From: a virus
Reading direction: 5' to 3' (one strand)
Length of the DNA stretch: 39,768 nucleotides
Virus record (IMG/VR): IMGVR_UViG_3300020039_000041
Below, piece after piece: positions 13,087 to 39,768 of this stretch (position 1 is the stretch's first letter; the number at the start of each line of letters is the position of its first letter). The notes beneath the pieces are model-generated. The model searched no databases. It was not told the origin of the DNA and was given only the letters and a program-made list of their open reading frames with translations. Both the position numbers and the translations under genes were made by a program.

Positions 13087-14169
13087 ATGGCCTCAACAGG
13101 ACTCAATTTTTCAAACCTCACCCCCGACAACGGGGCGGTTAAGGACCTCCGGAAACTTATTTTCCTCGCCGTCCTCGGTGCCGACCAAATCGGCGCACTC
13201 GTAAACGTCCTCCCCAAGCAGAAACACGGCGAAAAGGTCGGTTTCGTTGGTGAGTTCGGCCTTATCGGTAAGGCATCAACCAAATGTAACCCGGTGTTCG
13301 ACAACGACATTATGTCGACCTCCGAAAAGACGTGGGACATCCCCGAGTGGGAGGTCGCCGAAAAGATTTGTTACGCCGACCTCGAGGGAACCCTCGCACA
13401 GGTAGCAATGAAAACCGGAACGGACATCGCCGACCTCACGGGTTCCGACTACGTCGACCATATCGTTATGCCTCGACTCGAACTCGCAATCCGTAAAATG
13501 TTACTCCGTTTCGTGTGGTTCGGTGACAAGGCCGCAAAGGTAGTCGCCGACGGCGGTATCCTCAAACCCGGAACCGACGTTTCCAAGTTCACCGTTACGG
13601 ACGGACTGTGGAAACGCCTGTTCGCAATCGTCGCCGCCGACAACGCCCGTCACACCACAATCGCCGCGAACTCGGAAACCTCGTGGGCCGCACAAAAGGC
13701 CGCAATGAAAGTCGCCGGAGTTGCAACGGGTGTTATGGACGCCCTCATTGAGGACGCGCCCCTCGTACTCCGTCAGCAACCCAACGGTGTAATTTATATT
13801 ACACAGGCGTTCAAGGACGCCCTCGACCGCGACATCAAGCAGAACAACAAAGGTTCCGAAATGCAGTGGGAATCCCTGTTCGACGGTATCAAAAAGGGAA
13901 CGTACAACGGAATTACCGTTATCGCCGTTCCTTTTTGGGACGAAATCATACAGGGTTACGAGGCAACCGCAAACTCCGGGCAGTACAACAAGCCGTACCG
14001 CGCGATTTACACCGTCAAGGACAACCTCCTCGCGGGTGTTGAATCCGAGTCCGAACTCGCCGACATCGCAATTTGGTTCAACCGTGACGAACAGTTGAAC
14101 AAGATTCACGCAAAGGACAAAATCGGAACCCTCGTTGCACAGGACGACCTCGTACAGGTTGGTTACTAA
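13087..14169 (+). CDS. Major capsid protein (putative, HK97-fold class)
   Basis: 360 aa, directly after the protease/scaffold gene. Codon usage shifts (CAG is used more), as expected for a highly expressed gene. A strong terminator follows. Confidence 0.7.
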   Translation: MASTGLNFSNLTPDNGAVKDLRKLIFLAVLGADQIGALVNVLPKQKHGEKVGFVGEFGLIGKASTKCNPVFDNDIMSTSEKTWDIPEWEVAEKICYADLEGTLAQVAMKTGTDIADLTGSDYVDHIVMPRLELAIRKMLLRFVWFGDKAAKVVADGGILKPGTDVSKFTVTDGLWKRLFAIVAADNARHTTIAANSETSWAAQKAAMKVAGVATGVMDALIEDAPLVLRQQPNGVIYITQAFKDALDRDIKQNNKGSEMQWESLFDGIKKGTYNGITVIAVPFWDEIIQGYEATANSGQYNKPYRAIYTVKDNLLAGVESESELADIAIWFNRDEQLNKIHAKDKIGTLVAQDDLVQVGY

Positions 14170-17445: not shown

Positions 17446-18360
17446 ATGAAAGTAAATCCCAAAATCGGCGGACTATTAACCGCCCTTTTCACCTCCTCCG
17501 GGTCGACGATTGAGTTGTCCTCAATCGAAAAGGCGACCCTCTATTTTGTAACGCCGGATTACCGCCTCGTCGCGGCCGAAATGGAAAAGGACGAAACCCT
17601 CGAAAAGTTCGTCGCCCGCCTTTCGGAAACCGCCCTCCCGGTCGGTAATTTCCGCGTGTTCGCGGTTGTCGATTTGACCGACGACGGCGGGTCCCTCATA
17701 ACCCCCGTTGTTAACGCGTTCGACGTGTCGGTCCGAATCGGGTTCACAATCTCGGATTTCGTGTTCCCGACCTCGGAATTATCCTCGACCGTCCGCGAGG
17801 CGTTCGACGCCGACAAACTCCCCGTAACCAACGTTGACGGCGCGTTACTCGTTTGGGACGCCGCCTCCGGGAGTTACATTCAGTCCGGAACGAAACTCGC
17901 GTTCGTATTGCCGGACGACATCCTTTCCCCGTCCGACCTCGAGTCGGTCGTCCTCGGACTCCTCCACACGGACGCCGCCGTTACCGAGGCGACGGCCGCC
18001 GCAACCGAGGCCGCCGAACGCGCGAACGAGGCCGCCGACGCCGCCTCCGGAATCGTTGACGACGTGGACGGACACATCGACGAACGCGTTTCCGTTCTCG
18101 CCCACGCCGAGGACACCCTCGCCGAGGGACAAAAGACCCTCGCGGAACGAATCGACGGTATCGTGTCCGGTGAAACCCTCGTCGAATCCCTCAACGTCCG
18201 CAAACTCGGCGTTTGGGGTGAAAATAACCTCATTATCGTTGCGACCAACGCCCCGGACCGCAAACCCGACCGCGCCGGGCAATTTTGGATTGACAAGGCG
18301 AACAACGCCGTTTACAAGTCCACCGGGAACAACGGTATTGACGATTGGAAAACGGTATAA
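17446..18360 (+). CDS. Fibre protein 1 (Ala-rich stalk and conserved C-terminal knob)
   Basis: 304 aa. The stalk is AATEATAAATEAAERANEAADAASG. The C-terminus, ...LNVRKLGVWGENNLIIVATNAPDRKPDRAGQFWIDKANNAVYKSTGNNGIDDWKTV, is paralogous to the next gene. Confidence 0.6.
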   Translation: MKVNPKIGGLLTALFTSSGSTIELSSIEKATLYFVTPDYRLVAAEMEKDETLEKFVARLSETALPVGNFRVFAVVDLTDDGGSLITPVVNAFDVSVRIGFTISDFVFPTSELSSTVREAFDADKLPVTNVDGALLVWDAASGSYIQSGTKLAFVLPDDILSPSDLESVVLGLLHTDAAVTEATAAATEAAERANEAADAASGIVDDVDGHIDERVSVLAHAEDTLAEGQKTLAERIDGIVSGETLVESLNVRKLGVWGENNLIIVATNAPDRKPDRAGQFWIDKANNAVYKSTGNNGIDDWKTV

Positions 18361-18386
18361 CAGGCAAAACCAAAATTCAATATACA

Positions 18387-19469
18387 ATGTATTACGTCAA
18401 AACAGGTTACGGGTGTGGACTCAAGGTTTCCCTCGTCCAACCCTCCGGGGCCGCCGTTGACCTCCGCAAGGTTCGTTATATCGGCGCGGTTCTCCGGCTC
18501 CCGGGCGGTCAAACAATGACCGTTTCGGACATCAATTTCGACGAACTCACGAATAACGTATTTGTCCGCCTCCTCCCGACCCGGGAACTCACGACCGAGG
18601 GCAATTATGCAATTGTGTTCAACGTCAAGTTGTCCGACAACACAATGTATTCAACCCAACTCGTCGAAATTATCAACGTCGACGCCGACAATCCGGCCGG
18701 GTACATCGAAACCACAATCGCAATGTCCCTCACGGTGGTAAATTTCCCCTCGAACGTGGACGTTACGGGTTGTTCGCCGAAAGTAAGCGACAACAATACG
18801 TGGTTAGTGTACGACGACAACCTCAACGCGTACGTTGACACCGGGGTTTCCGTCGGTTACGCCGAACTCACGACCCGTTACGACGGTGTGTTCGCGTCAA
18901 TCATTACCCCGGCAACCGAGGCGACCGACGCCGCCAATACCGCCGCCGGAAACGCGAACGACGCCGCCGCCTCTGCAACCTCGGCGGGCGCGTATGCAAG
19001 CGAAAAAGCACAGGCGGCCGAGTCCGCCGCCGGGAACGCCTCGGAAAAGGCCGCCGCCGCGAATACCGCCGCCGCGAACGCAAATGAAAAAGCAACGGCC
19101 GCGAACAATGCCGCAAGCGCGGCAAACGACGCCGCCTCCGCCGCGACGTCGGCCGCCGCCGCCGCAACCGCCGCCGTCGTGAATATGGACACCGTTTTCG
19201 GGGTCCTCGCACACGCCGACGCGACGATTGAAAAGAAACTCGATACCCTCGCGAAACTTGTTATCGGGATTATCTCCGGAACTGTTCTCGTCGAGAAACT
19301 CAACGTACGGAACCTCGGTGTTTGGGGTGACAACAACCTCGTCGTCGTGGGTTCCGGTGCGCCGACCGCGAAACCGGACCGCGCGGGTCAAATCTACATT
19401 GACAAGACCAACAACGCGACGTATAAGTCGACCGGAAATTCGGCCGTATCCGATTGGAAAACCATTTAA
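18387..19469 (+). CDS. Fibre protein 2 (paralog of 17446-18360 with a longer Ala-rich stalk)
   Basis: The ATG at 18387 lies within ORF 18345-19469. The stalk is TEATDAANTAAGNANDAAASATSAG...AAANANEKATAANNAASAANDAASAATSAAAAATAAV. The C-terminus is ...LNVRNLGVWGDNNLVVVGSGAPTAKPDRAGQIYIDKTNNATYKSTGNSAVSDWKTI. Confidence 0.6.
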   Translation: MYYVKTGYGCGLKVSLVQPSGAAVDLRKVRYIGAVLRLPGGQTMTVSDINFDELTNNVFVRLLPTRELTTEGNYAIVFNVKLSDNTMYSTQLVEIINVDADNPAGYIETTIAMSLTVVNFPSNVDVTGCSPKVSDNNTWLVYDDNLNAYVDTGVSVGYAELTTRYDGVFASIITPATEATDAANTAAGNANDAAASATSAGAYASEKAQAAESAAGNASEKAAAANTAAANANEKATAANNAASAANDAASAATSAAAAATAAVVNMDTVFGVLAHADATIEKKLDTLAKLVIGIISGTVLVEKLNVRNLGVWGDNNLVVVGSGAPTAKPDRAGQIYIDKTNNATYKSTGNSAVSDWKTI

Positions 19470-19481
19470 TAAACTACAATT

Positions 19482-20798
19482 ATGCAAGTCAACAATTACG
19501 AAACAAAGGCCGCATACGAGGCCGACAACACCCGGTCGAGGACCGCGTCGGCCGTGTCAAAGATTGTCGAGGAATCCGCCGCAATTTTTGACGGCGTGAA
19601 CACCGTTGTTTACGACAAGAACCTCGCCGGAATCGGCGACCTCGTCGTTAAGGACACCGTCCGAAACGTCCTCGCGTTCATCAAGGCCGGAACGGTCAAG
19701 AAAACCCAAATCCCCGCAACCCTCAAACCCGTTGCGGAGGTGTTCGGCCGCAAGGGGGACAAGGTCCTCATTACCGCCCTCGAAAACCTTTCCGCCCGTT
19801 GGGGACATCCTTTCGAGGTCCTCATTTCGGGAATCAACAACGCCCTCGGCGGAACCCTCGCAATCGTCGTTCACAACAACGGCGCATTGACCGAGGAGGT
19901 CGACGTTTCGTGGGAGGCGGACGCCTCCCTCGAGTCAATCGCCGCGAGTATCAACGCACAGTTCCAAACCCTCACCGACGCCGACGATAAGGCGTGGGTC
20001 GCCTCGGTTCTCGGAAATCAAATCATCCTCGCGCACAATTACAACCTCAAGGACACCGTCGATTCCATAACCGGGACCGGAGGCGGCGCGGGTGTTACCT
20101 TTGTGGAGGACGACCACAATTGGCAAGTCGAATACGCGTACCTTTCCGGCGCGGAGTCTATCCGCCGAAACAACGGCGTCGATTCCTATTTCGCCGGGGG
20201 TAATTACAAGAAATTCCTCGACTATTACAAGACGAACGGGTCCGTCCCGGACGCAAACGTCCCCCTCGGTTCGTCAACGATAGTCAAACAAGACGCGTTC
20301 GAGAACTCCGAGTATTGCGCCGACCTCCGCGCCGCGTATCCGGATTATTCCTCGTACCTGTTCGGCGAACATTTCGCACAGTATCCGAACGCATACGGCG
20401 CAATGTTGCGCGACGGCAAGGAAACAACCGACCTCCTCGCCTCCCTCAAGGGGACCGTCGTTCGCGGTGCGAACGAACCCCGTTTCCCCGCCGCCGCCGC
20501 CGCGAAAAATTACGCGGTCGCCGACGCCCCGGAAATTGATTGGTGGTTGCCGTCCGTCGAGGAAATCCTTTTGTTAATGGCCGAACGTCGTTTGAACTCC
20601 GCCGACACAATGGAGGACCCGTTCAACGACACCGCCGTTGAAATGCAGACCGCGACCGCATACGGTAACGGTTATTACCCGTGGACCTGTTGCGAGTATT
20701 ACAGTAACTACGCGTTCCTCTTTAACGGCACCAACGGCACCGTGTACGACACCAGCAAGGTCAACGCGTACACGGTTCGTCCCGTTTCCGCTTTGTAG
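19482..20798 (+). CDS. DGR target protein 1 (receptor-binding protein candidate with a DUF1566/C-type-lectin-like C-terminus)
   Basis: 438 aa. The C-terminus, IDWWLPSVEEILLLMAERRL...YYPWTCCEYYSNYAFLFNGTNGTVYDTSKVNAYTVRPVSAL, contains VR1 in its last 35 codons. Confidence 0.85.
   Translation: MQVNNYETKAAYEADNTRSRTASAVSKIVEESAAIFDGVNTVVYDKNLAGIGDLVVKDTVRNVLAFIKAGTVKKTQIPATLKPVAEVFGRKGDKVLITALENLSARWGHPFEVLISGINNALGGTLAIVVHNNGALTEEVDVSWEADASLESIAASINAQFQTLTDADDKAWVASVLGNQIILAHNYNLKDTVDSITGTGGGAGVTFVEDDHNWQVEYAYLSGAESIRRNNGVDSYFAGGNYKKFLDYYKTNGSVPDANVPLGSSTIVKQDAFENSEYCADLRAAYPDYSSYLFGEHFAQYPNAYGAMLRDGKETTDLLASLKGTVVRGANEPRFPAAAAAKNYAVADAPEIDWWLPSVEEILLLMAERRLNSADTMEDPFNDTAVEMQTATAYGNGYYPWTCCEYYSNYAFLFNGTNGTVYDTSKVNAYTVRPVSAL
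20690..20795 (+). repeat. DGR variable region VR1
   Basis: Aligns to TR 21384-21489 with 15 mismatches. 14 fall at TR adenines and 1 at a TR thymine. Confidence 0.9.
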
Positions 20799-20820: not shown

Positions 20821-20865
20821 GGCGCGGCGGTTCGTCCGCTTGACGGCGACCGTCCGCGCCTTTTC
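20821..20865 (+). terminator. GC-rich extended hairpin plus T-run downstream of VR1 (a terminator and possibly the DGR target-recognition hairpin)
   Basis: ggcgcgg (20821-27) pairs with ccgcgcc (20854-60). Inner pairings are cggt/accg and cgtc/gacg. tttt follows. Confidence 0.65.
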
Positions 20866-20879
20866 ATATTTCGGAAATA

Positions 20880-21335
20880 ATGTCACATCCAAAAACAAGA
20901 CTCTCGATAATTGACAAACTCGACGTCCTCGGGAAAGAATACCGATTCTCGTTGAAATTGTATCCGACGGTCGAGAATTTCGACCGGAAATTCAAGTTCA
21001 CAATCGGCGACCGGATTATCGACGCCGAGGAAAGGGCCGAGGAACTTATTATCGACGCAAACAGGACGACCGACCCCCTCAAGGCGGCCGGGTTCCTCCA
21101 CGACGCGTTGACCGAGTTTGAGAAAATCGAAACGAAACTCCGGAGGGCAACCGCCCCCGGCCTGTTATCGCCGGATACCGAGGGATTGTTATTCGTGGAT
21201 TTGGACGACATAAGGGGCGACGCGAAACATTGGAGGTCCTACTTTTTGAAAGAGTACAAACGACAACAAAAAGAGGGTCGGAGTTCCGGAGGGGAACAGG
21301 AACACCCCGCCGGGAGTGAACCCACAATGAATTGA
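20880..21335 (+). CDS. avd: DGR accessory variability determinant (Avd-like)
   Basis: 151 aa, predicted helical. FSLKLYPTVENFDRKFKFTIGDRIIDAEERAEELIIDANR...LHDALTEFEKIETKLRRA fits the four-helix-bundle Avd / 23S-IVS-protein pattern. It sits in the canonical position between the target gene and TR. Confidence 0.6.
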   Translation: MSHPKTRLSIIDKLDVLGKEYRFSLKLYPTVENFDRKFKFTIGDRIIDAEERAEELIIDANRTTDPLKAAGFLHDALTEFEKIETKLRRATAPGLLSPDTEGLLFVDLDDIRGDAKHWRSYFLKEYKRQQKEGRSSGGEQEHPAGSEPTMN

Positions 21336-21383: not shown

Positions 21384-21492
21384 TTGCGAGTATAACAGTA
21401 ACAACGCGTTCATCTTTAACGGCAACAACGGCAACGTGAACAACAACAACAAGTACAACACGAACACGGTTCGTCCCGTTTCCGAATTTCTC
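21384..21492 (+). repeat. DGR template repeat (TR)
   Basis: A-rich and built of AAC codons in the VR reading frame (...aacaacggcaacgtgaacaacaacaacaagtacaacacgaac...). I count about 34 adenines. It shares the invariant 3' block acggttcgtcccgtttccg with both VRs. Confidence 0.9.
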
Positions 21493-22788
21493 GATAATAC
21501 CTCGGGAAATCCGGTGTTCGCGGCCCTTGTTTCCGAAATATTCCGGGCGTATCATATTTGTTTGTCGAACAAGGCAAACACCCCGCCCGCGTTACGGTTC
21601 CGCCTCGACGAGGCGGAGAATCTTTCCTCCCTTTGTCGGGAGGTCTATAATTTTGAGTACATCCCCCGTCCGTCAATCGCGTTTATCGTCACCGTCCCGT
21701 GTCCCCGGGAGGTGGTCGCGGCCGATTTCCGGGACCGGATTATTCATCATTATATCGTTATGAAACTCGAACCCCTGTTCGAGGGGTTGCACGTGTTCCA
21801 CCCGGACGTATATTCGTGTCGAGTCGGAAAGGGCAACCTCGCCGCAATCGAAAGGTTGCGGGACCGGATTTGGGTTGAATCAAAGGGTTACACGGTCCCG
21901 TGTTACGTCGCCTCGTTTGACCTACAATCGTTTTTTATGTCAATCGACAAACGGCGTTTATACGACGAACTCGTCGCCCTCGTACAAGAAAATTATTTCG
22001 ATTGGGACAAGGATTATTTGTTGTACCTTATCCGGGTAACGACATTTAATTCTCCCACGGAACACGCGATTCGACATTCCCCGTTGTCGGCGTGGGAACT
22101 CCTCCCGAAACACAAATCGTTGTACAATTTGGATTGGTTCCTCGGACTCGCAATCGGGAATTTGCCGTCGCAAACCGACGCGAATTTCTACAATTCGCCG
22201 TTCGTGTGGTGGTTGGTCGAGGTCGGCCTCGCCCCTGTTAATTACGTCGACGATTTTTACATCGTCGACCGGGACAAGGAAAAAATCCTCTCCGCAATGC
22301 CACATATCCGGACGTATCTTTCAACGGAACGTGGGTTGACCTTACATCCGCGCAAATTCGAGTTGCAACCCGTCGAACGCGGGTTCAAGTGTTTGGGCGG
22401 TATTGTGAAAGACGGCGAAATCTATGTCAACAAACGAACCGTTGCGCGTTGCTTTTGCAAAATCCATTGGTACAACGAGGAGGTCGGAAAGACACACCGA
22501 CACCGCGCCAAATACGCGGAAAAGTTCGTCGGAATCCTCAATTCGTACCTCGGGATTATGTCGCATTATTCGTCCGGGTCGACGCGTCGAAAGATTGCCG
22601 AAACCGTGTTGTCCGTTTGGGAGGGTTATATCGTATTCGACGAGGCGTTCACAAAGGCCCGTCCCGTATCGAAATATTGTCGGTTGAAACAGGCGCGATT
22701 CCACGCCCGCGTGAACCGACGGAACGATTTGTCAATTATAAACCAATTCAACAATGAACAATCGAGAATCAATCGTTCGTCGAATTGA
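21436..22788 (+). CDS. DGR reverse transcriptase (GTG start at 21436, or more likely 21514)
   Basis: RT domain motifs are AADFRDRIIHHYIV, the DGR-typical LAIGNLPSQ (I/LGxxxSQ) and NYVDDFYIV. There is no in-frame ATG near the 5' end. Confidence 0.9.
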   Translation: MNNNNKYNTNTVRPVSEFLDNTSGNPVFAALVSEIFRAYHICLSNKANTPPALRFRLDEAENLSSLCREVYNFEYIPRPSIAFIVTVPCPREVVAADFRDRIIHHYIVMKLEPLFEGLHVFHPDVYSCRVGKGNLAAIERLRDRIWVESKGYTVPCYVASFDLQSFFMSIDKRRLYDELVALVQENYFDWDKDYLLYLIRVTTFNSPTEHAIRHSPLSAWELLPKHKSLYNLDWFLGLAIGNLPSQTDANFYNSPFVWWLVEVGLAPVNYVDDFYIVDRDKEKILSAMPHIRTYLSTERGLTLHPRKFELQPVERGFKCLGGIVKDGEIYVNKRTVARCFCKIHWYNEEVGKTHRHRAKYAEKFVGILNSYLGIMSHYSSGSTRRKIAETVLSVWEGYIVFDEAFTKARPVSKYCRLKQARFHARVNRRNDLSIINQFNNEQSRINRSSN

Positions 22789-23026
22789 CGAACTCGAGTC
22801 CGAGAACCTCGGCCTCCTTGCGACAATGAAAAAATCCGACGCCCACGCGGAAAAGTGTTCGAAACTCGGACTCTCATTCGCGGAAACGTACCCGGAGGAC
22901 CTCGCGGAATATCGCGCCGCGAACGCAAAGTACAACGAAAACGAGGTCGAAATCGAGAACCTCAAACAGGAACTCGCCGACCTCCCGGAGGAGGAATCCC
23001 CGGAACCCGTAATCGAGGAGGAGTAA
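22754..23026 (+). CDS. Small acidic coiled-coil protein, unknown function
   Basis: 90 aa. Overlaps the RT 3' end by 35 nt in another frame. Contains IDELESENLGLLATMKK...EVEIENLKQELADLPEEE. Confidence 0.55.
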   Translation: MNNRESIVRRIDELESENLGLLATMKKSDAHAEKCSKLGLSFAETYPEDLAEYRAANAKYNENEVEIENLKQELADLPEEESPEPVIEEE

Positions 23027-23030
23027 CACA

Positions 23031-23297
23031 ATGAAACACGCCGGAACCATAATTTTTTGGATTTGTCTTGCCGTTTCCGCCGGACTCCTAATCGCCGGAT
23101 TTATTGTTCCTCCGACGGGCGTTATCGACGGAACCGTCTTGTCGGGCGTCGGTGAACTGTTCGCGTTCGCCGCCCTCGGCGAGGTCCCCGTCGTCGTCCG
23201 GGAGTCAAAGTCCGCAAAGATTACGGCCGGAAACAAGACAATCGAAATCACCGGGAACGGCTCGGGAAAACAGGACGCCGACCCCGGGGAGAAATAA
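23031..23297 (+). CDS. Membrane protein, holin candidate 1
   Basis: 88 aa with two hydrophobic segments (IIFWICLAVSAGLLIAGFIV; LSGVGELFAFAALG). Lies upstream of the endolysin. Confidence 0.55.
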   Translation: MKHAGTIIFWICLAVSAGLLIAGFIVPPTGVIDGTVLSGVGELFAFAALGEVPVVVRESKSAKITAGNKTIEITGNGSGKQDADPGEK

Positions 23298-24960: not shown

Positions 24961-25115
24961 TGTGGTGCTGGGAACGACCGAACGGTTGCAAGGTCGGGAT
25001 TTTGTAAGTTGTTGAGAATTCCGGCGAAATCGGCCTTTGTGCAATGTCTTGCAAGGTTTCCACGGCGAGGATTGCAACGCCGGGATTGCGCCCCATTGCA
25101 ATAATCCGCAAACAG

Positions 25116-25158
25116 GTTGACGAAAATTCGGGTTTTTGTCAACGGTTTTGTATCTTTG
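25116..25158 (+). promoter_or_regulatory. Integrase promoter region: imperfect palindrome followed by a TATCTTTG -7 box
   Basis: gttgacgaaaa-N6-tttttgtcaac (one mismatch) at 25116-25143. The -7 box is at 25151-25158 and the ATG at 25179. Confidence 0.5.
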
Positions 25159-25178
25159 CGGGGTACAAATTGGAAAAT

Positions 25179-26510
25179 ATGCCTACAATCAAAAAATCGT
25201 TGTCGTCAAAGGTTGACGGCGACGGAAAGTCCGAAATCCTGTTGCGGTTCTCCGGAGGACGGGACGCCGTGTTCCGCGTCAAGTCCGGAATCCGGATTCC
25301 TCCGGCCCGGTGGAACGTCAAGGAATCCCGGATTATCATTCCCCGTTTGGAAACATCGGAACAACGCGACCTCGTCAAGGCGGCAAAGGAACTCGACGAC
25401 GTTTGCAACCTGTTAATCGAGGCGTACACGGCCGCCGACAAAACGACCGTGTCGCGGGAGTGGTTCGCCGACATCCTCGACCGATACCGACACCCGGAGA
25501 AAAACACGCCCTCCGGAGGGGATTTTTTCGGCGCGTTCGAAAAGTTCCTCAGCGACAACGAGTCCTCCCGGCCCCGGGAAAATCATTTCAAGGTATTAGA
25601 ACGACAACTCCGGCGGTTCGAACTGTATTCCGGCCGGGAGTGGGAACTCGACACCGTGTCGGCCGACGACCTCGCCGCGTTTAAGGATTTCCTCGTCAAC
25701 GAACACGCGATATTCAAGGACAAGAAATTCGAATTCATATACACGGCCGTTCCGGAGTCACGGACGCCGGGTCCCCGTGGTTACAACGCAATCGGAAACT
25801 CGTTGCGCCTGTTCCGAACGTTTTTCAATTGGTGTATCAAACACCGTTTGACGACGAATTATCCGTTCCGGGAATACTCAATCGAGGCCCCGGTTTACGG
25901 AACCCCGTATTATATCACCCTCGAGGAACGCGAACGTATCGCCGGGGCGGATTTGTCCTCCCGGCCGCAAGTCGCGACACAACGGGACGTGTTCGTCTTT
26001 CATTGTTGTATCGGTTGCCGGGTCGGGGACCTGTTGCGCCTCACCCGGGCGAACATTATTGACGGCGCGGTCGAGTATATCGCCCGCAAGACATCCGGCG
26101 AACGCCCGGTAACAATCCGGGTCCCCCTCAACAACACCGCAAAGGAAATCCTCGAAAGATACAAGGATTTCCCCGGTCCCGGCCTATTGCCGTTCATATC
26201 CTCCCAAAAGTACAACGACGCAATTAAAACCGTGTTCCGCCTCGCCGGAATCGACCGGGTCGTTACGGTCCTCAATCCCCGGACCCGCCGGGAGGAACAA
26301 CGGCCGTTGTACGAAATCGCCTCGTCCCACCTCGCCCGGCGAACGTTCATCGGGAACCTATACAAACAAGTCAAGGACCCGAACCTCATTTCGTCCCTCT
26401 CCGGACACGTCGAGGGGTCGACGGCGTTTTACAGGTATCGCAACGTTGACGAACAAATGAAACGGGACCTCGTCCGATTGTTGGACGAACCCGTCAAACC
26501 GACGGAATAA
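25179..26510 (+). CDS. int: Tyrosine recombinase / phage integrase (Bacteroidota type)
   Basis: The ATG at 25179 (MPTIKKSL) lies within ORF 25044-26510. Catalytic-domain residues appear in CCIGCRVGDLLRL (Arg), SSHLARRTF (HxxR) and GHVEGSTAFYRY (Tyr). Confidence 0.92.
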   Translation: MPTIKKSLSSKVDGDGKSEILLRFSGGRDAVFRVKSGIRIPPARWNVKESRIIIPRLETSEQRDLVKAAKELDDVCNLLIEAYTAADKTTVSREWFADILDRYRHPEKNTPSGGDFFGAFEKFLSDNESSRPRENHFKVLERQLRRFELYSGREWELDTVSADDLAAFKDFLVNEHAIFKDKKFEFIYTAVPESRTPGPRGYNAIGNSLRLFRTFFNWCIKHRLTTNYPFREYSIEAPVYGTPYYITLEERERIAGADLSSRPQVATQRDVFVFHCCIGCRVGDLLRLTRANIIDGAVEYIARKTSGERPVTIRVPLNNTAKEILERYKDFPGPGLLPFISSQKYNDAIKTVFRLAGIDRVVTVLNPRTRREEQRPLYEIASSHLARRTFIGNLYKQVKDPNLISSLSGHVEGSTAFYRYRNVDEQMKRDLVRLLDEPVKPTE

Positions 26511-26616: not shown

Positions 26617-26745
26617 CCTTTTTCGTGACGTCGCGAAAATGATTCCGGAGGCCCTCCGGGGCCGATTTCCTATTCTCCCCGAAAAAAAATTCAAATTTTT
26701 TGCAACTTTTTGATATTTGCATTTGCATAATTCAAAAATAGTGTT

Positions 26746-26753
26746 TACCTTTG
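26746..26753 (+). promoter_or_regulatory. TACCTTTG -7 box upstream of the accessory operon
   Basis: A consensus TAnnTTTG lies 32 nt upstream of ATG 26785, in an AT-rich intergenic region. Confidence 0.5.
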
Positions 26754-29046: not shown

Positions 29047-29339
29047 TGTTTCGCCTGTTTGAGGTAATACATCCGTTCGGCCTCGTCCCGGTCCGATTTG
29101 GTCCGGCGGATTTCCGCCTCGACCGTGGACCGTTCCTCCATTAACCGGAGGACCTCGTCGTCCGGCGTTCCGGCCGGGAGGGATTCCGACAAGTTGAACA
29201 GGGAATCCCGGCGCGACTCGAGGGACTCCAACAGGGCCGAAAACGCGGCGTATTCGGGCGTTTTCTCGAACGACGGGGATTTCCCCCGGCAAGACATCAA
29301 AAGCGCGGCAACGGCCGCAAGAATCGCAAATCCTCTCAT
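29043..29339 (-). CDS. Small lipoprotein in the lysogeny operon (superinfection-exclusion candidate)
   Basis: 98 aa, from the ATG at 29339. Has a signal peptide plus lipobox (MRGFAILAAVAALLMSC) followed by a helical, charged region. ATGA overlaps at both ends. Confidence 0.6.
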   Translation of the reverse strand: MRGFAILAAVAALLMSCRGKSPSFEKTPEYAAFSALLESLESRRDSLFNLSESLPAGTPDDEVLRLMEERSTVEAEIRRTKSDRDEAERMYYLKQAKQ

Positions 29340-29782
29340 TTTCCGTCGGTCCTGTGGAACGGGGTTCCGGTTATATGTTCGATTATCGCAATAAGACGGT
29401 CGATTTGTGAAAGGTGGACCGCCGATTGTCGTTGTTCCTCCCGGAGGTACGACATCACCTCCGGCGACATAATGGAAACCTTTTGATTCCCGAAATTGGT
29501 GTAATCCCCCTCGACGTGGACGGGGAACGGGTCGGACGGTTCCGACCTCCGGAACATTGGCCCCTCGCCGGACTCCAACCAATCCGGGGAAATCTCCGGG
29601 AACGCCTCGAGGATTTTTCCGAACAACTTTTTCGGAACGTCGATTTGTTCGCGGACGATTTCCGAAATTGTCGCCTTGTCGGAACCCACAATTTCGGCAA
29701 AGTGGGATTGATTCCGGATTTTCCGGGAATTTTTGAGTTCGGCGATTAACTCCGCAACTCTTTGATTTTTAGACACATCCAT
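29336..29782 (-). CDS. CI-like phage repressor (HTH, no S24 peptidase domain)
   Basis: 148 aa, from the ATG at 29782 (MDVSKNQRVAELIAELKNSRKIRNQSHFAEIVGSDKATISEIV...ISPDWLESGEGPMF). Divergent from the early operon. Confidence 0.75.
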   Translation of the reverse strand: MDVSKNQRVAELIAELKNSRKIRNQSHFAEIVGSDKATISEIVREQIDVPKKLFGKILEAFPEISPDWLESGEGPMFRRSEPSDPFPVHVEGDYTNFGNQKVSIMSPEVMSYLREEQRQSAVHLSQIDRLIAIIEHITGTPFHRTDGK

Positions 29783-29799
29783 ATTTGTACAAAAATTTC

Positions 29800-29836
29800 T
29801 CCGAAAATAATGTTCGGAAAATTTGTTTGTTCCGAA
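29800..29836. promoter_or_regulatory. Operator cluster: three TTCCGAA/TTCGGAA half-sites
   Basis: tccgaa (29800-05), N7, ttcggaa (29813-19), N10, ttccgaa (29830-36). Located in the cI leader / divergent control region. Confidence 0.55.
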
Positions 29837-29877
29837 CAAAATGTTTAGTTTTGCAATCGGTTAACGATTTCACACCG

Positions 29878-29885
29878 CAAAGGTA
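29878..29885 (-). promoter_or_regulatory. TACCTTTG -7 box for the lysogeny operon (minus strand)
   Basis: The + strand reads caaaggta, which is tacctttg on the - strand, about 95 nt upstream of the cI ATG. Confidence 0.5.
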
Positions 29886-29953
29886 CGAACAATTTAACCC
29901 GCCGTAAATGGCAAATATATGTAATTTTTGAACGAAACACAAACAAATTGGAT

Positions 29954-30781
29954 ATGACCCTCGAACGAAAAGTCGATTTTGCAATCAAACTGTTGCGGTC
30001 AATTCCGACCGACGACGGCCCGATTGAATTGTCGTATTCCGGCGGCAAAGACTCCGACGTTATCCTCGAACTCGCCCGTATGTCGGGAATTCCTTTCGAG
30101 GCGATTTACAAGAATACGACAATCGACCCTCCGGGGACCCTCTCGCATTGCCGGGAACAAGGGGTTACAATCCTCAAACCGAAACTCACATTTTTACAAC
30201 TCGTCGAGAAAAAGGGGACGCCGTCCCGGTTCGCGCGTTTTTGTTGCGAGGCCCTCAAGGAATACAAGGTGTACAACCGCGCAATACAAGGAATTCGCCG
30301 CGCCGAATCCACCGCCCGGGCGAAACGATACCACGAACCCGAAATTTGCCGGGTTTACTCCGCAAAGGAAAAGGTCCGCGTTTACCTCCCTATACTCGAA
30401 TGGACGGACGAGGACGTCGCCCGGTTCATTGAGGAACGCGGTATCAAGTGCGCCCCGCTTTATTACGACGAGTCCGGCCGTTTCCACGTCGAACGCCGCC
30501 TCGGTTGTATTGGTTGCCCCCTTGCGGCCGACAACGGCCTCGCCGATTTCAAACAGTATCCTAAACTCCTCAAGCAAGTAATCGAGGCGAAAAAGCGGTT
30601 TTACGAAACCCACCCGAACGCCGGGAAAACCTTTGACCGGAACGTTTACAACGGATTGTATTTTCAATTCTTTTGCCGGAATCTCGACGACTACCGGGTC
30701 GCAATAGGGGGGGGTCTATTTCCGGAACAAGCAATTGACACGCAACAATTTTTGTCCGAGTATTTCGGAATCGAGTTATAA
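29954..30781 (+). CDS. PAPS/APS-reductase-family PP-loop enzyme with a CC...CxxC Fe-S motif
   Basis: The ATG at 29954 lies within ORF 29948-30781. The PP-loop is LSYSGGKDSDV, and the cysteines are ARFCCEALK and LGCIGCPLA. Confidence 0.8.
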   Translation: MTLERKVDFAIKLLRSIPTDDGPIELSYSGGKDSDVILELARMSGIPFEAIYKNTTIDPPGTLSHCREQGVTILKPKLTFLQLVEKKGTPSRFARFCCEALKEYKVYNRAIQGIRRAESTARAKRYHEPEICRVYSAKEKVRVYLPILEWTDEDVARFIEERGIKCAPLYYDESGRFHVERRLGCIGCPLAADNGLADFKQYPKLLKQVIEAKKRFYETHPNAGKTFDRNVYNGLYFQFFCRNLDDYRVAIGGGLFPEQAIDTQQFLSEYFGIEL

Positions 30782-30806: not shown

Positions 30807-31322
30807 ATGAAACACACATTTTCAATTTTCATCGTGAACCCCGCAAACGGGGAGTTCGTAACCCTCGCCGATTGGTCGAAAACCGAGAACCCCGCCTCCG
30901 CCGAATTCGTCGCGATTGTCCGCGAGGATAAATCCGGAATCATTATCGCAAGGGACCCCGTCAAGGTTGACGGCGAAATCAATTTCGAGTGGAAAAAGGC
31001 CGTCGAACTCGCAAAGGCGTTCAAACCCGCGACGGACGTTGCCGCCCTCGCCGTCGAGGGATTCCGCCTCCCGGACCGCCGCGAGGCCCTCGACATTTAC
31101 GACGCCCGTTTTCAAGGACTCGACGACGCCCTCGCCCTTATCGGCGGAACCCCTGTTCATACAGGCGACGCCCGTTGGATATGGACCGAGGACGAGGACC
31201 CGGACCCCGAGTATAACAGTAACTACGCGTTCCTCTTTAACGGCGGCAACGGCTACGTGGGCTACCACTACAAGTACTACGCGGGCCCGGTTCGTCCCGT
31301 TTCCGCTTTTCTCCCGTTTTAG
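30807..31322 (+). CDS. DGR target protein 2 (small DUF1566/CLec-like protein carrying VR2)
   Basis: 171 aa. FRLPDRREALDIYDA...RWIWTEDEDPDPEYNSNYAFLFNGGNGYVGYHYKYYAGPVRPVSAF. I see no obvious signal peptide or lipobox. Confidence 0.85.
   Translation: MKHTFSIFIVNPANGEFVTLADWSKTENPASAEFVAIVREDKSGIIIARDPVKVDGEINFEWKKAVELAKAFKPATDVAALAVEGFRLPDRREALDIYDARFQGLDDALALIGGTPVHTGDARWIWTEDEDPDPEYNSNYAFLFNGGNGYVGYHYKYYAGPVRPVSAFLPF
31208..31313 (+). repeat. DGR variable region VR2 (remote)
   Basis: Aligns to TR 21387-21492 with 17 mismatches, all at TR adenines. Confidence 0.9.
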
Positions 31323-31392
31323 GTTTTGAGGTTTAATCGTTCCCGGCCCGGTTCGCCCCGGCGAGGGGTTGACCGGGACGGGGTTAAAGACA

Positions 31393-31698
31393 ATGAAAAC
31401 AAACGTTATTCAACAAATCATTCTCGCCCTCGTTGGGTTCGCAATCCTGTTCGTCGGGTTCCTGTTGTTCATTTCCGTTTGCGGGGAACCCTCGCCGGAA
31501 TACAACGCCCGCCTCGAGGAACTGTTCGGTTGGTTTGCGTGGTTCGCCTCGCTTGTCGACAACATCCTCCGGGGCCTCGCCGGGGCCGCGTTAATGTGGC
31601 TCGGTTATAAGGTTTACCCGTTCCACGACGAGAAACCCGCCCCGGACGCCGGGAACGCCTCAAACAATGAATCATTAAACCCAATTCGCAATGAATAA
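31393..31698 (+). CDS. Small membrane protein (2-3 TM segments)
   Basis: The ATG at 31393 lies within ORF 31369-31698. Hydrophobic segments are IILALVGFAILFVGFLLFISV and FGWFAWFASLV...AALMWLGY. Confidence 0.6.
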   Translation: MKTNVIQQIILALVGFAILFVGFLLFISVCGEPSPEYNARLEELFGWFAWFASLVDNILRGLAGAALMWLGYKVYPFHDEKPAPDAGNASNNESLNPIRNE

Positions 31699-32205: not shown

Positions 32206-34278
32206 ATGGATATTCGTATTATTTCCCTCAAAATTCAAAATTTCAAAGGCATACAGGACCGGACGTTCGAGTTCGGCGGCGCAAATGCAAACATCGTCGG
32301 CGAAAACGGCCTCGGCAAGTCGACAATCTTTGACGCGTTCACGTGGTTGTTGTTCGGCAAGGACCACCGGAACACCGTTCAAAACAAGTTCGAAATCGTA
32401 CCAATCGACCCGGCGACCGGGGAACAGGTCCACCACCTCGAAACCCTCGTCGAGGCCGAACTCTCGACCGACGGCGTCAAAACAACCCTCCGCCGTGTTT
32501 GGCGTGAAACGTGGTCCCGCGCAAAGTCGACCGTCGAATCCAAATTGACGGGTCACGAATCGTTGTTCTATGTTAACGGCGTGAACGTCGACACCCTCGA
32601 GAATTACAACAAGTTTATCGGCGAACTTGTCGACGAAAAGATTTTCCGCCTCATTACCGACCCGTTGTTTTTCATCGGCGATACGACCGACAAAAAGGCC
32701 CGCCGCGAGGCCCTGTTAACCCTCGTCGGGGACTCAATCGACAAGGCCGCAATCCGCGAGAAATACGCCGGGATTATTGCCAAAATGAACGGGGAGGATA
32801 TTGTCACGTTCCGCAAACGTATTGCGTCCGAAAAACGCGACATCAAACGCGACCTCGCCGCCTGTGACCCGCAAATCTCCGCTTATACGGATTCCCTCCC
32901 GGCCCCGGAGGATTACGACGCCCTCGCAAAGGAAATCGACACCCTCGCGGCAAAGACCGACAAGGAACTCGCCGACGTACAGGCCGAAATAAAACAGGTC
33001 GACGAATCTATCGCCGACATCCGCAAGGCCGACAACCTCGCCGCCGGGGAAATCTCCCGGAAACGTCAACAGGTATCCGAACTCCGACTCAAGGCCCGAA
33101 AACTCATTGACGACCGTTTCGCCGAGGTTCAATCCCGGAATTACGAAATCGGTTCCGCCGCCCGGACCGCCACCCTCAAGGTGGAACAGTTGGACCGCAA
33201 GATTGCCGACGCAAACGCGACCCTCGAGAACATCCGTTCCGGTATCGAGTCCGCAAAGGCCGAACGCGCCTCAATCGAGGCAAAGGTCGAGGGAATCAAA
33301 CAGTCAATCGCGGCCGTCAAGACCCGCGCGTTCGAGTACAACGGGGAAACCGTGTGTCCCGCTTGCGGACAACCCCTCCCGGCCGAGAACATCGAACACG
33401 CCCGCGAGGTCGCCCTCGAACATTTCACCGCCGACAATCAACAGGAAATCGACCGCCTCCGGAAATCTGCGTTGTCCTTGCAACCTCGATACGACACCCT
33501 CGGGGCCGACATCAACAACGCCTCCGCCCGTATCGAACTAATCGAGGCCGAACTTGTCAAGACCCGCGCCGCCCGCGAGGAGGCCGAACAGGAACGCACA
33601 ACCGCCGCCGCGACGCCCACCCTCAAGACGGACGGAATCGAACAGGCCGTCAAGACATCCCCGGAATACGTCGCCCTCGAGGAGGAAATCGCCCGAATCG
33701 AGGCCGAAATCGGTTCCCCGGTAACGACCGACGTTTCCGGCCTGTTATCCAAACGCCGCGAACTCGAGTCGAAACAGGACGTTATCCGCAAGGCGTACAC
33801 CGCCGACGTTGACCCCCTCAAAAAACGCCTCGCCCGCCGGGAGGAGGCCGACCGTATCAAGGCGAAAATCGCCGCAAAGGAGGAGGACAAACAAAGGTTC
33901 ACCGAACGCCTCGCCGAACTCGAACAAATGGAATTCGACGCGGCCGAGTATGTCCGCGAGGATATATCCGCCGTCGAGGGCGCAATCAACGCCCGTTTCA
34001 AGATTGCCCGGTTCCGTATGTTCGACACCCTCGTAAACGGGGACGTCGTCGAGGATTGTACCGTTATGGACGCAAACAACGTCCCGTACGGGTCAATGAA
34101 CGACGCAAAACGAATCCTCGTCGGAATGGACGTAATCGCGGCCTTTTGCGAGGCGTACGGCGTGAACGCACCGATATTTGTTGACAACGCCGAATCAATC
34201 ACCGTGTCCCGGTTCGACGTCGCGTCGCAAGTTATCCGCCTCTCGGTCGTCAAGGGCGCGGACCTCACAATCGAATAA
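32206..34278 (+). CDS. Rad50/SbcC-like SMC-family ATPase with a zinc hook
   Basis: 690 aa, from the ATG at 32206. Walker A is GENGLGKST. Long coiled coils flank CPACGQPL, and the C-terminus carries the Walker B/D-loop PIFVDNAES. Confidence 0.8.
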   Translation: MDIRIISLKIQNFKGIQDRTFEFGGANANIVGENGLGKSTIFDAFTWLLFGKDHRNTVQNKFEIVPIDPATGEQVHHLETLVEAELSTDGVKTTLRRVWRETWSRAKSTVESKLTGHESLFYVNGVNVDTLENYNKFIGELVDEKIFRLITDPLFFIGDTTDKKARREALLTLVGDSIDKAAIREKYAGIIAKMNGEDIVTFRKRIASEKRDIKRDLAACDPQISAYTDSLPAPEDYDALAKEIDTLAAKTDKELADVQAEIKQVDESIADIRKADNLAAGEISRKRQQVSELRLKARKLIDDRFAEVQSRNYEIGSAARTATLKVEQLDRKIADANATLENIRSGIESAKAERASIEAKVEGIKQSIAAVKTRAFEYNGETVCPACGQPLPAENIEHAREVALEHFTADNQQEIDRLRKSALSLQPRYDTLGADINNASARIELIEAELVKTRAAREEAEQERTTAAATPTLKTDGIEQAVKTSPEYVALEEEIARIEAEIGSPVTTDVSGLLSKRRELESKQDVIRKAYTADVDPLKKRLARREEADRIKAKIAAKEEDKQRFTERLAELEQMEFDAAEYVREDISAVEGAINARFKIARFRMFDTLVNGDVVEDCTVMDANNVPYGSMNDAKRILVGMDVIAAFCEAYGVNAPIFVDNAESITVSRFDVASQVIRLSVVKGADLTIE

Positions 34279-35594: not shown

Positions 35595-36344
35595 ATGAAA
35601 TTACACGTAATCGCGACCGGGTCGTCCGGTAACTGTTACGTCCTCGAGGGGACAACGTCCGCCCTCGTTATCGAGGCGGGCGTATCCCCGGAAAAGGTGT
35701 TCCAACGGGTCCGTATGTCGACCCGCAAAATCGCCGGGGTTATCATTACCCACGAACACGGCGACCACGCGGGATTTATACACCGTTGGTTGGTCCTCGG
35801 GTTCCGGGTCTATATGTCCGCCGGGACCCGGGAGGCCCTCCGCCTCAACGATTCCCGCCTCGTCGACATCCTCAAGGCGTGGACCGCGTATTCCCTCGGC
35901 GCGTTCTCGGTCCGGCCGTTCCCGGCCGTCCACGACGCCGCCGAACCCCTTTCGTTCATTATCGACTCGGAGGAATCCGGGCGAATCCTGTTCGCGACCG
36001 ATACCGGGCGAATCGGGTATTCGTTCCGGACGGGTAACATCCGACACCTCGTCGTCGAGGCGAATTACTCCGATTCCCTCATTAACGACGGCCTCAACCG
36101 GGGAACCCTGTTCCCGGCCCTTGCAAAACGTATCCGGGAGAATCATTTATCCCTCGAACGTTGCCGGGAGTTCGTACAGGAACACAACACCGCCGCCCTC
36201 GAGAACGTCGTTTTGATTCATTTGTCGGGCGACAACGCCGACCCGGGGATATTCCGCGATACAATCGCGAAAACGGCCCCGTACGCGAACGTTTGTGTCG
36301 CGGTCAAGGATTTAGTCGTCCCGCTTAATAAACTCTCAATATAG
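35595..36344 (+). CDS. Metallo-beta-lactamase-fold hydrolase/nuclease
   Basis: 249 aa. Has the HxHxDH motif VIITHEHGDHAG. Confidence 0.8.
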   Translation: MKLHVIATGSSGNCYVLEGTTSALVIEAGVSPEKVFQRVRMSTRKIAGVIITHEHGDHAGFIHRWLVLGFRVYMSAGTREALRLNDSRLVDILKAWTAYSLGAFSVRPFPAVHDAAEPLSFIIDSEESGRILFATDTGRIGYSFRTGNIRHLVVEANYSDSLINDGLNRGTLFPALAKRIRENHLSLERCREFVQEHNTAALENVVLIHLSGDNADPGIFRDTIAKTAPYANVCVAVKDLVVPLNKLSI

Positions 36345-39085: not shown

Positions 39086-39744
39086 ACCCGCGTTCCGAAA
39101 TATACAACGTCGATTGCCTCGAGTATATGCGAACACTCCCGGACAACGCGTTCGACCTCGCCGTTGTCGACCCGCCGTATGGAATCAACGCGGGAAAAAT
39201 GACAATGGGAATCGGAACGCGCCGGACGTATTCTCGCGACAAAGATTGGGACGCCGGAGTCCCCGGCCCGGAGTATTTCGAACAGTTATTCCGCGTGGCC
39301 CGTGAACAAATAATTTGGGGCGGAAATTACTTTCAACTCCCGTTGTCTGAGGATTGGATTGTTTGGGACAAAATGAATTACGGACGGTCCTTTTCCGAGG
39401 CGGAATTCGCGTGGTGTTCGATACATCGAAAAATACGCGTTTTCCGGTTCCGTACGACAACACCCGTCGAGGGCGGCAAGATTCACCCGACACAAAAACC
39501 CGTGGAGTTGTACACGTGGATTTTGTCAAATTATGCACGGGGGGGGTCACGGATATTCGATTCTCACCTCGGGTCCGGGGCCTCAAGAATCGCCGCGTAT
39601 CAACTCGGAATGGATTTCGTCGGTTGCGAATTGGACCCGGATTATTTCCGCGCCTCGGACGAGTGGTTCAACCGCGTTTGTCGAGGAATCGTCGTCGACG
39701 CGGCCGGGAATCAAACGCAACAATTAAACCTCTTTGACGTATGA
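39082..39744 (+). CDS. DNA methyltransferase, beta-class N6A/N4C (DPPY)
   Basis: 220 aa, from the ATG at 39082 within ORF 38962-39744. Motif IV is VVDPPYG, followed by HPTQKP, then motif I, FDSHLGSGAS. This motif order (IV before I) is that of the beta class. Confidence 0.88.
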   Translation: MNPRSEIYNVDCLEYMRTLPDNAFDLAVVDPPYGINAGKMTMGIGTRRTYSRDKDWDAGVPGPEYFEQLFRVAREQIIWGGNYFQLPLSEDWIVWDKMNYGRSFSEAEFAWCSIHRKIRVFRFRTTTPVEGGKIHPTQKPVELYTWILSNYARGGSRIFDSHLGSGASRIAAYQLGMDFVGCELDPDYFRASDEWFNRVCRGIVVDAAGNQTQQLNLFDV

Positions 39745-39768
39745 AACAGGAAACAATGACGGCGGCCG
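39670..39768. repeat. Terminal direct repeat, copy 2 (identical to 1-99)
   Basis: Exact 99-nt match to the window start. Confidence 0.9.

Follow-up and report, generated by a model that had tools for sequence, protein, structure and literature searches.

The DNA described here is IMG/VR virus record IMGVR_UViG_3300020039_000041, a stretch of 39,768 nt (the window, to whose positions all coordinates refer) that carries a diversity-generating retroelement (DGR) with two targets, one adjoining the retroelement and the other a remote gene for a protein of 171 amino acids (30807–31322, + strand), and it is this second target that concerns us. The first 99 positions of the window are repeated exactly at its end (1–99 and 39670–39768), and the window is a complete phage genome of ~39,669 bp, circularly closed or terminally redundant. 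Within it a repeat finder returns a single family of direct repeats in three copies, namely the template repeat (TR; 21387–21492, +) and two variable repeats (VRs), VR1 (20693–20798) and VR2 (31208–31313, +).

VR1 ends the gene for a 438-residue protein (19482–20798, +) that lies directly 3' of tail-fibre-like genes, the one upstream of it (18345–19469) matching tail-fibre PHROGs, and that precedes genes for holin-like membrane proteins and an amidase. The interval from VR1 to the TR holds an open reading frame (ORF) for an Avd-like accessory protein (20880–21335, +), whose match to Pfam bAvd is weak (E 9.9e-5, 23.2 bits against a cut-off of 40) and whose position is canonical. The TR, with 37 adenines in 106 nt, overlaps the 5' end of the ORF for the DGR reverse transcriptase (RT; 21436–22788, +), which matches Pfam RVT_1 with 32.6 bits (cut-off 29.6) and contains the DGR-type motif IGNLPSQ at residue 240 and YVDD at residue 270. 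The element is a canonical phage DGR with a fibre-type target. In phage BPP-1, the source of the canonical phage DGR target Mtd, mutagenic homing from TR to VR is adenine-specific, the ORF has the VR at its 3' end and the protein has a C-type-lectin-type (CLec) fold; unlike the 171-residue protein, Mtd is a trimeric tail-fibre tip protein whose gene adjoins the cassette in the structural region.

VR2 forms the 3' end of the 171-residue ORF and codes residues 134–169. An ungapped base-by-base comparison with the TR gives 17 mismatches in 106 nt, all 17 at TR adenines, just as a first-pass annotation of the sequence had claimed; the chance of mismatches confined to adenines is (37/106)^17 = 1.7e-8. 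Fifteen of the substitutions occupy codon positions 1–2 of AAC, ATC or ACG codons and the remaining two make up an AA>CT change at 31306–31307 that is also found in VR1. VR1 itself departs from the TR at 14 adenines within the homologous repeat and at one other base, a T>G change at position 20760; with no non-adenine mismatch in VR2, it is the remote target that holds the "cleaner" copy.

The end of VR2 (31288–31313, +) resembles an initiation of mutagenic homing (IMH) element, in that an 18-nt G+C-rich block (31288–31305) is identical in TR, VR1 and VR2, the next two bases (31306–31307) are CT in both VRs and AA at the same site in the TR, and the TTTCTC that follows is again common to VR2 and TR. 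The invariant block and the "GCT discriminator" of the first-pass annotation are therefore both present, and its figure of about 9.8 kb for the distance from TR to VR2 agrees with the 9,821 nt that we measure. At their 3' ends, VRs of distant homologues of the protein again have a GCTTT motif. A G+C-rich hairpin (31342–31382, +) begins 29 nt 3' of VR2, as one does 23 nt downstream of VR1 (20821–20860), and comparable hairpins follow the VRs of two homologue loci (L002 and L003); DNA folding finds none after the VR of a third (L006). By z-score the VR2 hairpin (-0.9) is not significantly more stable than shuffled sequence, the VR1 hairpin scores -3.4, and no T-run is found 3' of the VR2 hairpin, which may be a DGR target-recognition cruciform or an attenuator. 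A G+C-rich IMH-like end followed by a downstream hairpin was reportedly described for BPP-1 by Guo et al. in 2011.

The 171-residue protein and its predicted fold

The remote target is a stand-alone protein of the Lcl_C/DUF1566-like class with a predicted CLec fold, a pI of 4.8 and no cysteine. Its match to Pfam Lcl_C (PF07603, DUF1566) is sub-threshold (24.9 bits against a gathering cut-off of 34.9, E 2.7e-5), two of its homologues (P0035 and P0036) carry a precomputed PF07603 match, and the WRLPTxxEL-type motif occurs in it as FRLPDRREAL. A sequence search of the PDB gives a marginal Lcl match only. An AlphaFold2 model built on 55 homologues reaches a pLDDT of 91.9 and a pTM of 0.88, and the best Foldseek match to it in the PDB is the C-terminal domain of Legionella Lcl (8q4e_A, E 5.8e-6; TM-score 0.53 by the query and 0.67 by the target), followed by snaclec (snake-venom C-type lectin) and intimin CLec folds. 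Among the structures of BFVD the matches are DUF1566 proteins of uncultured phages, including full-length matches to proteins of 228–415 residues (TM-score 0.73), and the same fold is also found at the C-termini of annotated tail fibres. The CLec fold foreseen by the first-pass annotation is in this way recovered by structure prediction.

All 171 residues are taken up by one globular domain in the model, which has neither an N-terminal anchoring segment nor a fibre segment, and VR2 codes the last four beta-strands. The N-terminus (MKHTFSIFIVNP...) is conserved in the family and forms a beta-strand of the globular model. Hydropathy and pattern heuristics detect no signal peptide, lipobox or transmembrane segment; the maximum KD19 value is 0.97 and the longest uncharged N-terminal run is 7 residues. 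The earlier description of a protein that has no signal peptide or lipobox and no fibre-like N-terminal domain holds on each point. No structural or functional match for the protein was returned by PHROGs, NCBIfam or PADLOC. As modelled, it is a soluble single CLec-like domain whose C-terminal ~35 residues are rewritten, and by analogy with other CLec-fold DGR targets we infer that these residues would form a ligand-binding surface.

The protein might have been a duplicate of the C-terminal domain of the fibre-type target. BLASTP similarity between the VR1 target and the 171-residue protein is, however, restricted to the stretch templated by the TR, and the latter is therefore not a recent copy of the former. 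Like Legionella LdtA and the Lcl_C/DUF1566 class, the protein has the fold class represented by its best match, 8q4e, and the same type of VR sequence, but LdtA is a cellular surface lipoprotein with a signal peptide and lipobox, whereas the 171-residue protein is phage-encoded and has neither signal.

Activity of VR2 and distribution of the family

A word-index search finds 61 homologues of the protein, nearly all of 167–173 residues. Among the 24 closest relatives the mean column entropy of residues 1–134 is 0.21 bit and that of the adenine-templated codon columns is 1.1–3.1 bits, while G146, G149, V151 and V162–F171 are fixed between the variable columns. Substitution rates divide in the same way: pairwise dN/dS in the scaffold is 0.13–0.40 at informative divergence, whereas in VR2 pairwise dN is 0.25–0.45 and dS is near 0. 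In one pair the scaffolds differ at only one of 402 nt, yet dN in the VR is 0.34, and the 14 sampled members of one 90%-identity cluster have 14 distinct VR tails. These comparisons indicate that the scaffold is under purifying selection, and they find VR2 hypervariable, when invariance across populations had been named beforehand as the outcome that would mark a decayed target. The 90%-identity cluster of P0001 (the 171-residue target) also holds many sequences of 101–103 residues labelled "transmembrane protein", which are products of the downstream gene; the mixture looks like a clustering artefact in the protein collection.

Two relatives show VR2 following its template. In L004 and L007 non-adenine positions of the TR have changed, and these changes recur in VR2, which has no non-adenine mismatch in either case; in L007 (53% protein identity), the only one of the two with VR1 inside the fetched DNA, VR1 shares the non-adenine changes of the TR as well. 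Continuing homing is the only explanation that our analysis offers for non-adenine TR changes copied into the VRs, and by these comparisons VR2 is a second target to which the phage's only DGR still homes. The L004 contig (WILK20-1...scaffold_591, 78,412 bp) has roughly the length of two genomes, which points to the same phage assembled as a concatemer and not to an integrated prophage.

The wider family was collected with a profile of 55 sequences run against 1.84 billion cluster representatives, each family representative standing for one 50%-identity cluster. At E<=1e-3 the search returns 194 proteins, of which 99 reach E<=1e-10. Nearly all have 145–180 residues and match from residues 1–5 onwards; a few weak matches in long proteins cover the VR part alone. 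Of 94 short members, P0163 (173 residues) alone begins with a hydrophobic segment, a lipoprotein-like signal (…LLTAFQC) fused to the C-terminal half of the domain, and it may be an exported variant.

Close relatives of the window phage (L001, L004, L007 and L020) keep the gene order of the window, so that the synteny sought by the first-pass annotation is present. More distant homologues, with 33–49% identity, occur in five otherwise unrelated backbones, whose only further detected likeness to the window phage is at most a weak cI-like or integrase match, and all five place the homologue in an early or replication module. In L002 a cI-like gene, a 72-residue gene and the target are followed by an HTH_36 protein; in L003/L023 the order is DUF2800, an Enc34 single-stranded DNA-binding protein (DUF2815), the target, DNA polymerase A and ORFs of 796 and 454 residues; in L006 the target precedes an 89-residue gene and RecT, with SNF2 and VRR-NUC further downstream; in L021 it follows a PcfJ-like gene; and in L025, a 133-kb contig of a Bacteroidales metagenome-assembled genome (MAG), it lies between a cI-like gene and DnaG primase. 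One further homologue (L024:9998–10609, from a Bacteroidales MAG contig of 68 kb) continues beyond the normal stop and the IMH region to 203 residues and may be a decayed copy in a degraded prophage.

No TR lies inside the fetched loci L002, L003, L006, L021 and L023–L025. For the L002 backbone, the same IMG/VR contig (L028) contains the C-terminus of a fibre-type target (VR1), an Avd-like ORF and a TR, which was located with a pattern taken from a related TR; the small-protein VR differs from this TR at 19 adenines and one G, and then in an AG>CT end. A fibre-type target and a small early-module target served by one TR thus recur in at least two unrelated backbones. In the L002-type lineage (L026:9775–9843 and 10555–10623; L028) the TR has AAT where both the fibre-type and the small-protein VRs have TTT, so that W-N-F in the TR is W-F-F in the VRs, and the same N-to-F change in independent targets hints at selection for Phe at that site. 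Between L021 and L022, 20 of the 25 differences in 450 nt fall within the last 120 nt, 19 of those 20 at codon positions 1–2. DGR targeting in the four other backbones is suggested by VR-like composition, to which the L021/L022 difference pattern adds.

Searches of GenBank returned nothing comparable: megablast with 15.5 kb of the window found no match among phages and plasmids, tblastn with the 171-residue protein and two distant family members found none among phages, and tblastn with one distant member found none among plasmids and gave no plasmid or leading-region link. The family is one of previously undescribed stand-alone proteins, so far from metagenomes alone.

Genomic setting and published precedents

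The 171-residue gene is the second of a series of rightward genes. The first encodes a PAPS-reductase-like protein (29954–30781, +; Pfam PAPS_reduct E 1.2e-16; phrog_424) with weak BrxP/DndC similarity, whose stop codon is 25 nt from the ATG of the target, and directly 3' of the target lies the gene for a 101-residue single-pass membrane protein (31393–31698, +; KD19 3.13 at residue 9), which is kept in L001, L004, L017, L018 and L020. A 78-residue protein, a GerE-like helix-turn-helix (HTH) protein (in relatives), a Rad50/SbcC-like ATPase, an HTH_17 protein, RecT, a metallo-beta-lactamase (MBL)-fold protein and a DnaD-like replication protein then complete the order. These are the flanking genes and the downstream recombination and replication genes that had been described from the sequence at first reading. 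No + strand terminator-like site is found inside the rightward operon stretch, and an integrase gene (25044–26510) lies upstream of it.

A gene for a cI-like HTH repressor (29336–29782, -; weak Pfam HTH_3) diverges from the rightward genes, a neighbour conserved in L001 and L020 and weakly in L002 and L003. The intergenic region between it and the PAPS-reductase-like gene (29783–29953) holds two back-to-back promoter-like sites, a Bacteroidetes-type site (TTTG ... TAgtTTTG; 29822–29853, +) upstream of the rightward genes and its partner (29912–29943, -), each identified as a consensus match only. The pattern TTTG-N17-23-TAnnTTTG has 5 matches in the window against 0.59 expected, the others being at 26722–26753 (+), 13535–13566 (-) and 32814–32847 (-). 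The paired sites point to a divergent switch region in a phage of a Bacteroidota host, and from gene order and consensus motifs it is reasonable to regard the 171-residue gene as the second gene of a rightward early operon. The host labels of the MAG bins that hold relatives are contradictory (Prevotellaceae and Bacteroidales, but also Oscillibacter and Clostridia); we lean towards Bacteroidota because of the promoter motif enrichment and a DUF6808 gene.

Two products of the rightward genes have matches among proteins of immunity or counter-immunity. The Rad50/SbcC-like ATPase (32206–34278) matches Lamassu LmuB and other defence ATPase models (PADLOC, E 5.5e-17), which is probably generic SMC-like similarity. 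The MBL-fold protein (35595–36344), which adjoins RecT, matches anti-Pycsar Apyc1 faintly and far below threshold (16 bits; cut-off 50) and is more likely a recombination-module nuclease. In the structural region, the two adjacent tail-fibre-like genes upstream of the VR1 target (17446–19469) have a 152-nt repeat in common with 72% identity (18178–18329 and 19287–19438), as well as Ala-rich repeats with a periodicity of 21 nt (17962–18065 and 18915–19201), which suggests duplication or module exchange.

The first-pass annotation considered a target of this kind to be outside known biology, and here it did not hold, since distal second targets were published in 2018, 2021 and 2025. Wu et al. 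(2018) listed many DGRs of phages in which one target adjoins the cassette and another lies elsewhere in the prophage, and found about half of the DUF1566-class targets (their category "d") to be short DUF1566-only proteins (PMC5758913). In Quimbyvirus, Benler et al. (2021) found a second target away from the structural module and suggested that it serves in phage-host conflict (PMC8008677), Hedzet et al. (2021) described cultured Bacuni phages with two DUF1566 targets, one of them far from the cassette (PMC8143477), and a 2025 Nature paper added four species of gut prophage whose distal second VR lies close to counter-defence genes (PMC12629997). Expression, localisation or virion proteomics of the distal targets are reported in none of these four papers. 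The window has the layout in question, with VR2 in a replication/recombination module 9.8 kb from the TR and VR1 3' of tail-fibre genes, and its VR2 target adds one more case to the distal, non-structural DGR targets of phages that at least three earlier papers report. What is new here is a coherent family, almost uniformly signal-less, with a scaffold under purifying selection, a consistent early or replication placement and co-targeting with a fibre in at least two backbones.

Bacuni_F1 (MT635598) offers a detailed comparison, since it is likewise a ~40-kb siphovirus of Bacteroidota with one DGR and two targets, one of which adjoins the Avd, TR and RT. Its distal target is the coding sequence Bacuni_F1_00026 (QMS42043.1, 224 residues, 22548–23222, - strand), annotated as "putative fimbrial tip protein", which we equate with the "ORF 43" in Hedzet et al. 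2021 (PMC8143477). Its VR has 15 adenine-only mismatches against a TR ~12.6 kb away (~35194). It is a small DUF1566-class protein that, like the 171-residue protein, lacks a signal peptide. Homology to the family covers its C-terminal half (hhalign probability 94.6% over 77 columns), which closes with VRPVSAFL, whereas the 145 residues at its N-terminus are unrelated to the family. It too lies in a replication module, though its neighbours are DNA polymerase A and C5-methyltransferases instead of a PAPS-reductase and RecT. Hedzet et al. read both Bacuni targets as adhesion ("fimbrial tip") proteins (PMC8143477), an interpretation that may need revisiting for a signal-less protein encoded among replication genes. 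They also report 15 single-nucleotide polymorphisms (SNPs) in the "secondary" VR between Bacuni F1 and F2, which have the same host, and a different RT-proximal VR between F1 and F4, whose hosts differ (PMC8143477); by elimination we infer the "secondary" VR to be the distal one.

Other parallels are looser. Quimbyvirus and the 2025 prophages also have a VR within the tail module or directly behind it, together with a distal VR in a non-structural, CLec-domain target, a likeness of layout and of domain class by description, and it was from the neighbouring genes that a part in phage-host conflict was proposed for them. Unlike the window phage, Quimbyvirus is a myovirus-like phage of ~75 kb, whose second target is encoded on the other strand with genes for methyltransferases, a nuclease and a tRNA ligase around it. 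On the bacterial side, cytoplasmic CLec-containing DGR targets of multicellular bacteria and cyanobacteria have been described as putative sensors in conflict or signalling (PMC10907252, PMC7517822), but these are large multidomain host-side proteins (STAND NTPases, kinases), whereas the 171-residue protein has a single domain and is encoded by a phage.

Possible roles of the diversified protein

The mechanism that we propose begins with RNA of the TR, which would be copied by an RT/Avd complex with adenine-specific errors. The resulting cDNA would take the place of the final ~100 nt in one of two genes, the tail-fibre-type gene (VR1) or the 171-residue gene (VR2). Both homing sites contain the same G+C-rich 3' block with its VR-specific GCT, and a hairpin lies 3' of each. 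Transcribed together with the leading genes of the rightward, probably early lytic, operon beside the cI-like repressor, the 171-residue protein would be made early and stay in the cytoplasm of the infected cell as a diversifiable binding protein, whose likeliest ligand would be a polymorphic molecule of the host or of a competitor, for example a defence component. It is the lack of an export signal together with co-transcription in the early operon that places its predicted work inside the infected cell; the timing of expression, the cytoplasmic site of action and the identity of the ligand are all predictions. On balance we favour the view that the protein is a diversified binder inside the infected cell, probably acting in phage-host conflict, and not a receptor-binding part of the virion. 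More tentatively, the family as a whole may consist of intracellular binders reprogrammed by DGRs that early in infection counter or escape polymorphic immunity proteins of the host or competing mobile elements. The candidate roles first suggested for the protein, namely binding of a host factor or defence protein and superinfection control, are plausible.

Several points weigh against an intracellular role in conflict. The window phage and its relatives are known here from sequence alone, gene position is circumstantial evidence for both timing and function, and the promoter and operon assignments are consensus matches. The protein has no similarity to known anti-defence or defence proteins in PADLOC, NCBIfam or PHROGs, and in four of the five distant backbones the TR lies beyond the fetched DNA. 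The tail-fibre-type target uses the same fold and the same TR-encoded surface, and given the presence of the fold at annotated tail-fibre C-termini the protein may instead have a role related to adsorption.

The alternative that draws most on these last points makes the protein an accessory virion component, a detachable adhesin or decoration on the tail or fibre that supplies a second, independently diversified receptor-binding specificity from a gene outside the structural region. We consider this rather unlikely, even though the protein has the fold class and the TR-encoded variable surface of the fibre-type VR1 target, some annotated phage tail fibres end in an Lcl_C-like fold and Hedzet et al. 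read both Bacuni targets as adhesins (PMC8143477), because in all six backbones examined the gene lies in an early or replication module and never beside tail genes. A single globular domain that has no anchoring or fibre segment and gives no structural PHROG match also fits poorly with a place on the virion, and between Bacuni F1 and F2 the 15 SNPs in the secondary, presumably distal, VR leave the host unchanged. An improbable reading, which would bring the protein functionally close to T5 Llp, is that it protects the phage by binding the phage's own receptor or envelope precursors, inside the cell or after lysis, and so blocks superinfection or the loss of progeny on debris. Its position does suggest early expression, it has a repertoire of binding surfaces in common with the receptor-binding fibre, and a small membrane protein is encoded directly downstream in the window lineage; that membrane protein, however, is not conserved in the other backbones, a protein that has no export signal could not reach the surface before lysis, and VR1 and VR2 diversify independently (of the seven TR positions substituted in both VRs of the window, three have the same base), so that any matched specificity would be lost at each event.

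It is also conceivable in principle that a distal VR is a relic, in which case VR2 would be a functionless copy of the repeat, either decayed or made off target by accident. This bare possibility is all that speaks for such an account, and we give it hardly any credence. VR2 has no non-adenine mismatch where VR1 has one, it co-evolves with the TR in diverged lineages, its ORF is intact and of conserved length in 61 homologues, and the protein belongs to a family of 99 representatives at E<=1e-10. We rejected a decayed target on the combination of hypervariable adenine-templated codons, joint change of TR and VR, and purifying selection on the scaffold.

The reading that we prefer, of a diversified binder at work inside the infected cell, bears on how phage DGRs are understood. 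Most work on them assumes that their purpose is to change host range through tail fibres, and a target that is diversified as actively as the fibre, is under purifying selection, has no export signals and always lies in an early or replication module suggests a need for rapid variation inside the cell as well. Should the more tentative proposal for the family be true, it would amount to programmed hypermutation of a counter-defence protein, a phage-side mirror of the DGR-diversified CLec "antigen sensors" that have been proposed for conflict systems of bacteria. The family provides a handle for study, since its members are small and soluble, have a confident model and many natural variants and recur across unrelated backbones, and a cultured analogue exists in the Bacuni phage. 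If the ligand is a component of host defence, the 171-residue protein would represent a new mechanism in the arms race between phages and bacteria and a natural scaffold for the evolution of intracellular binders.

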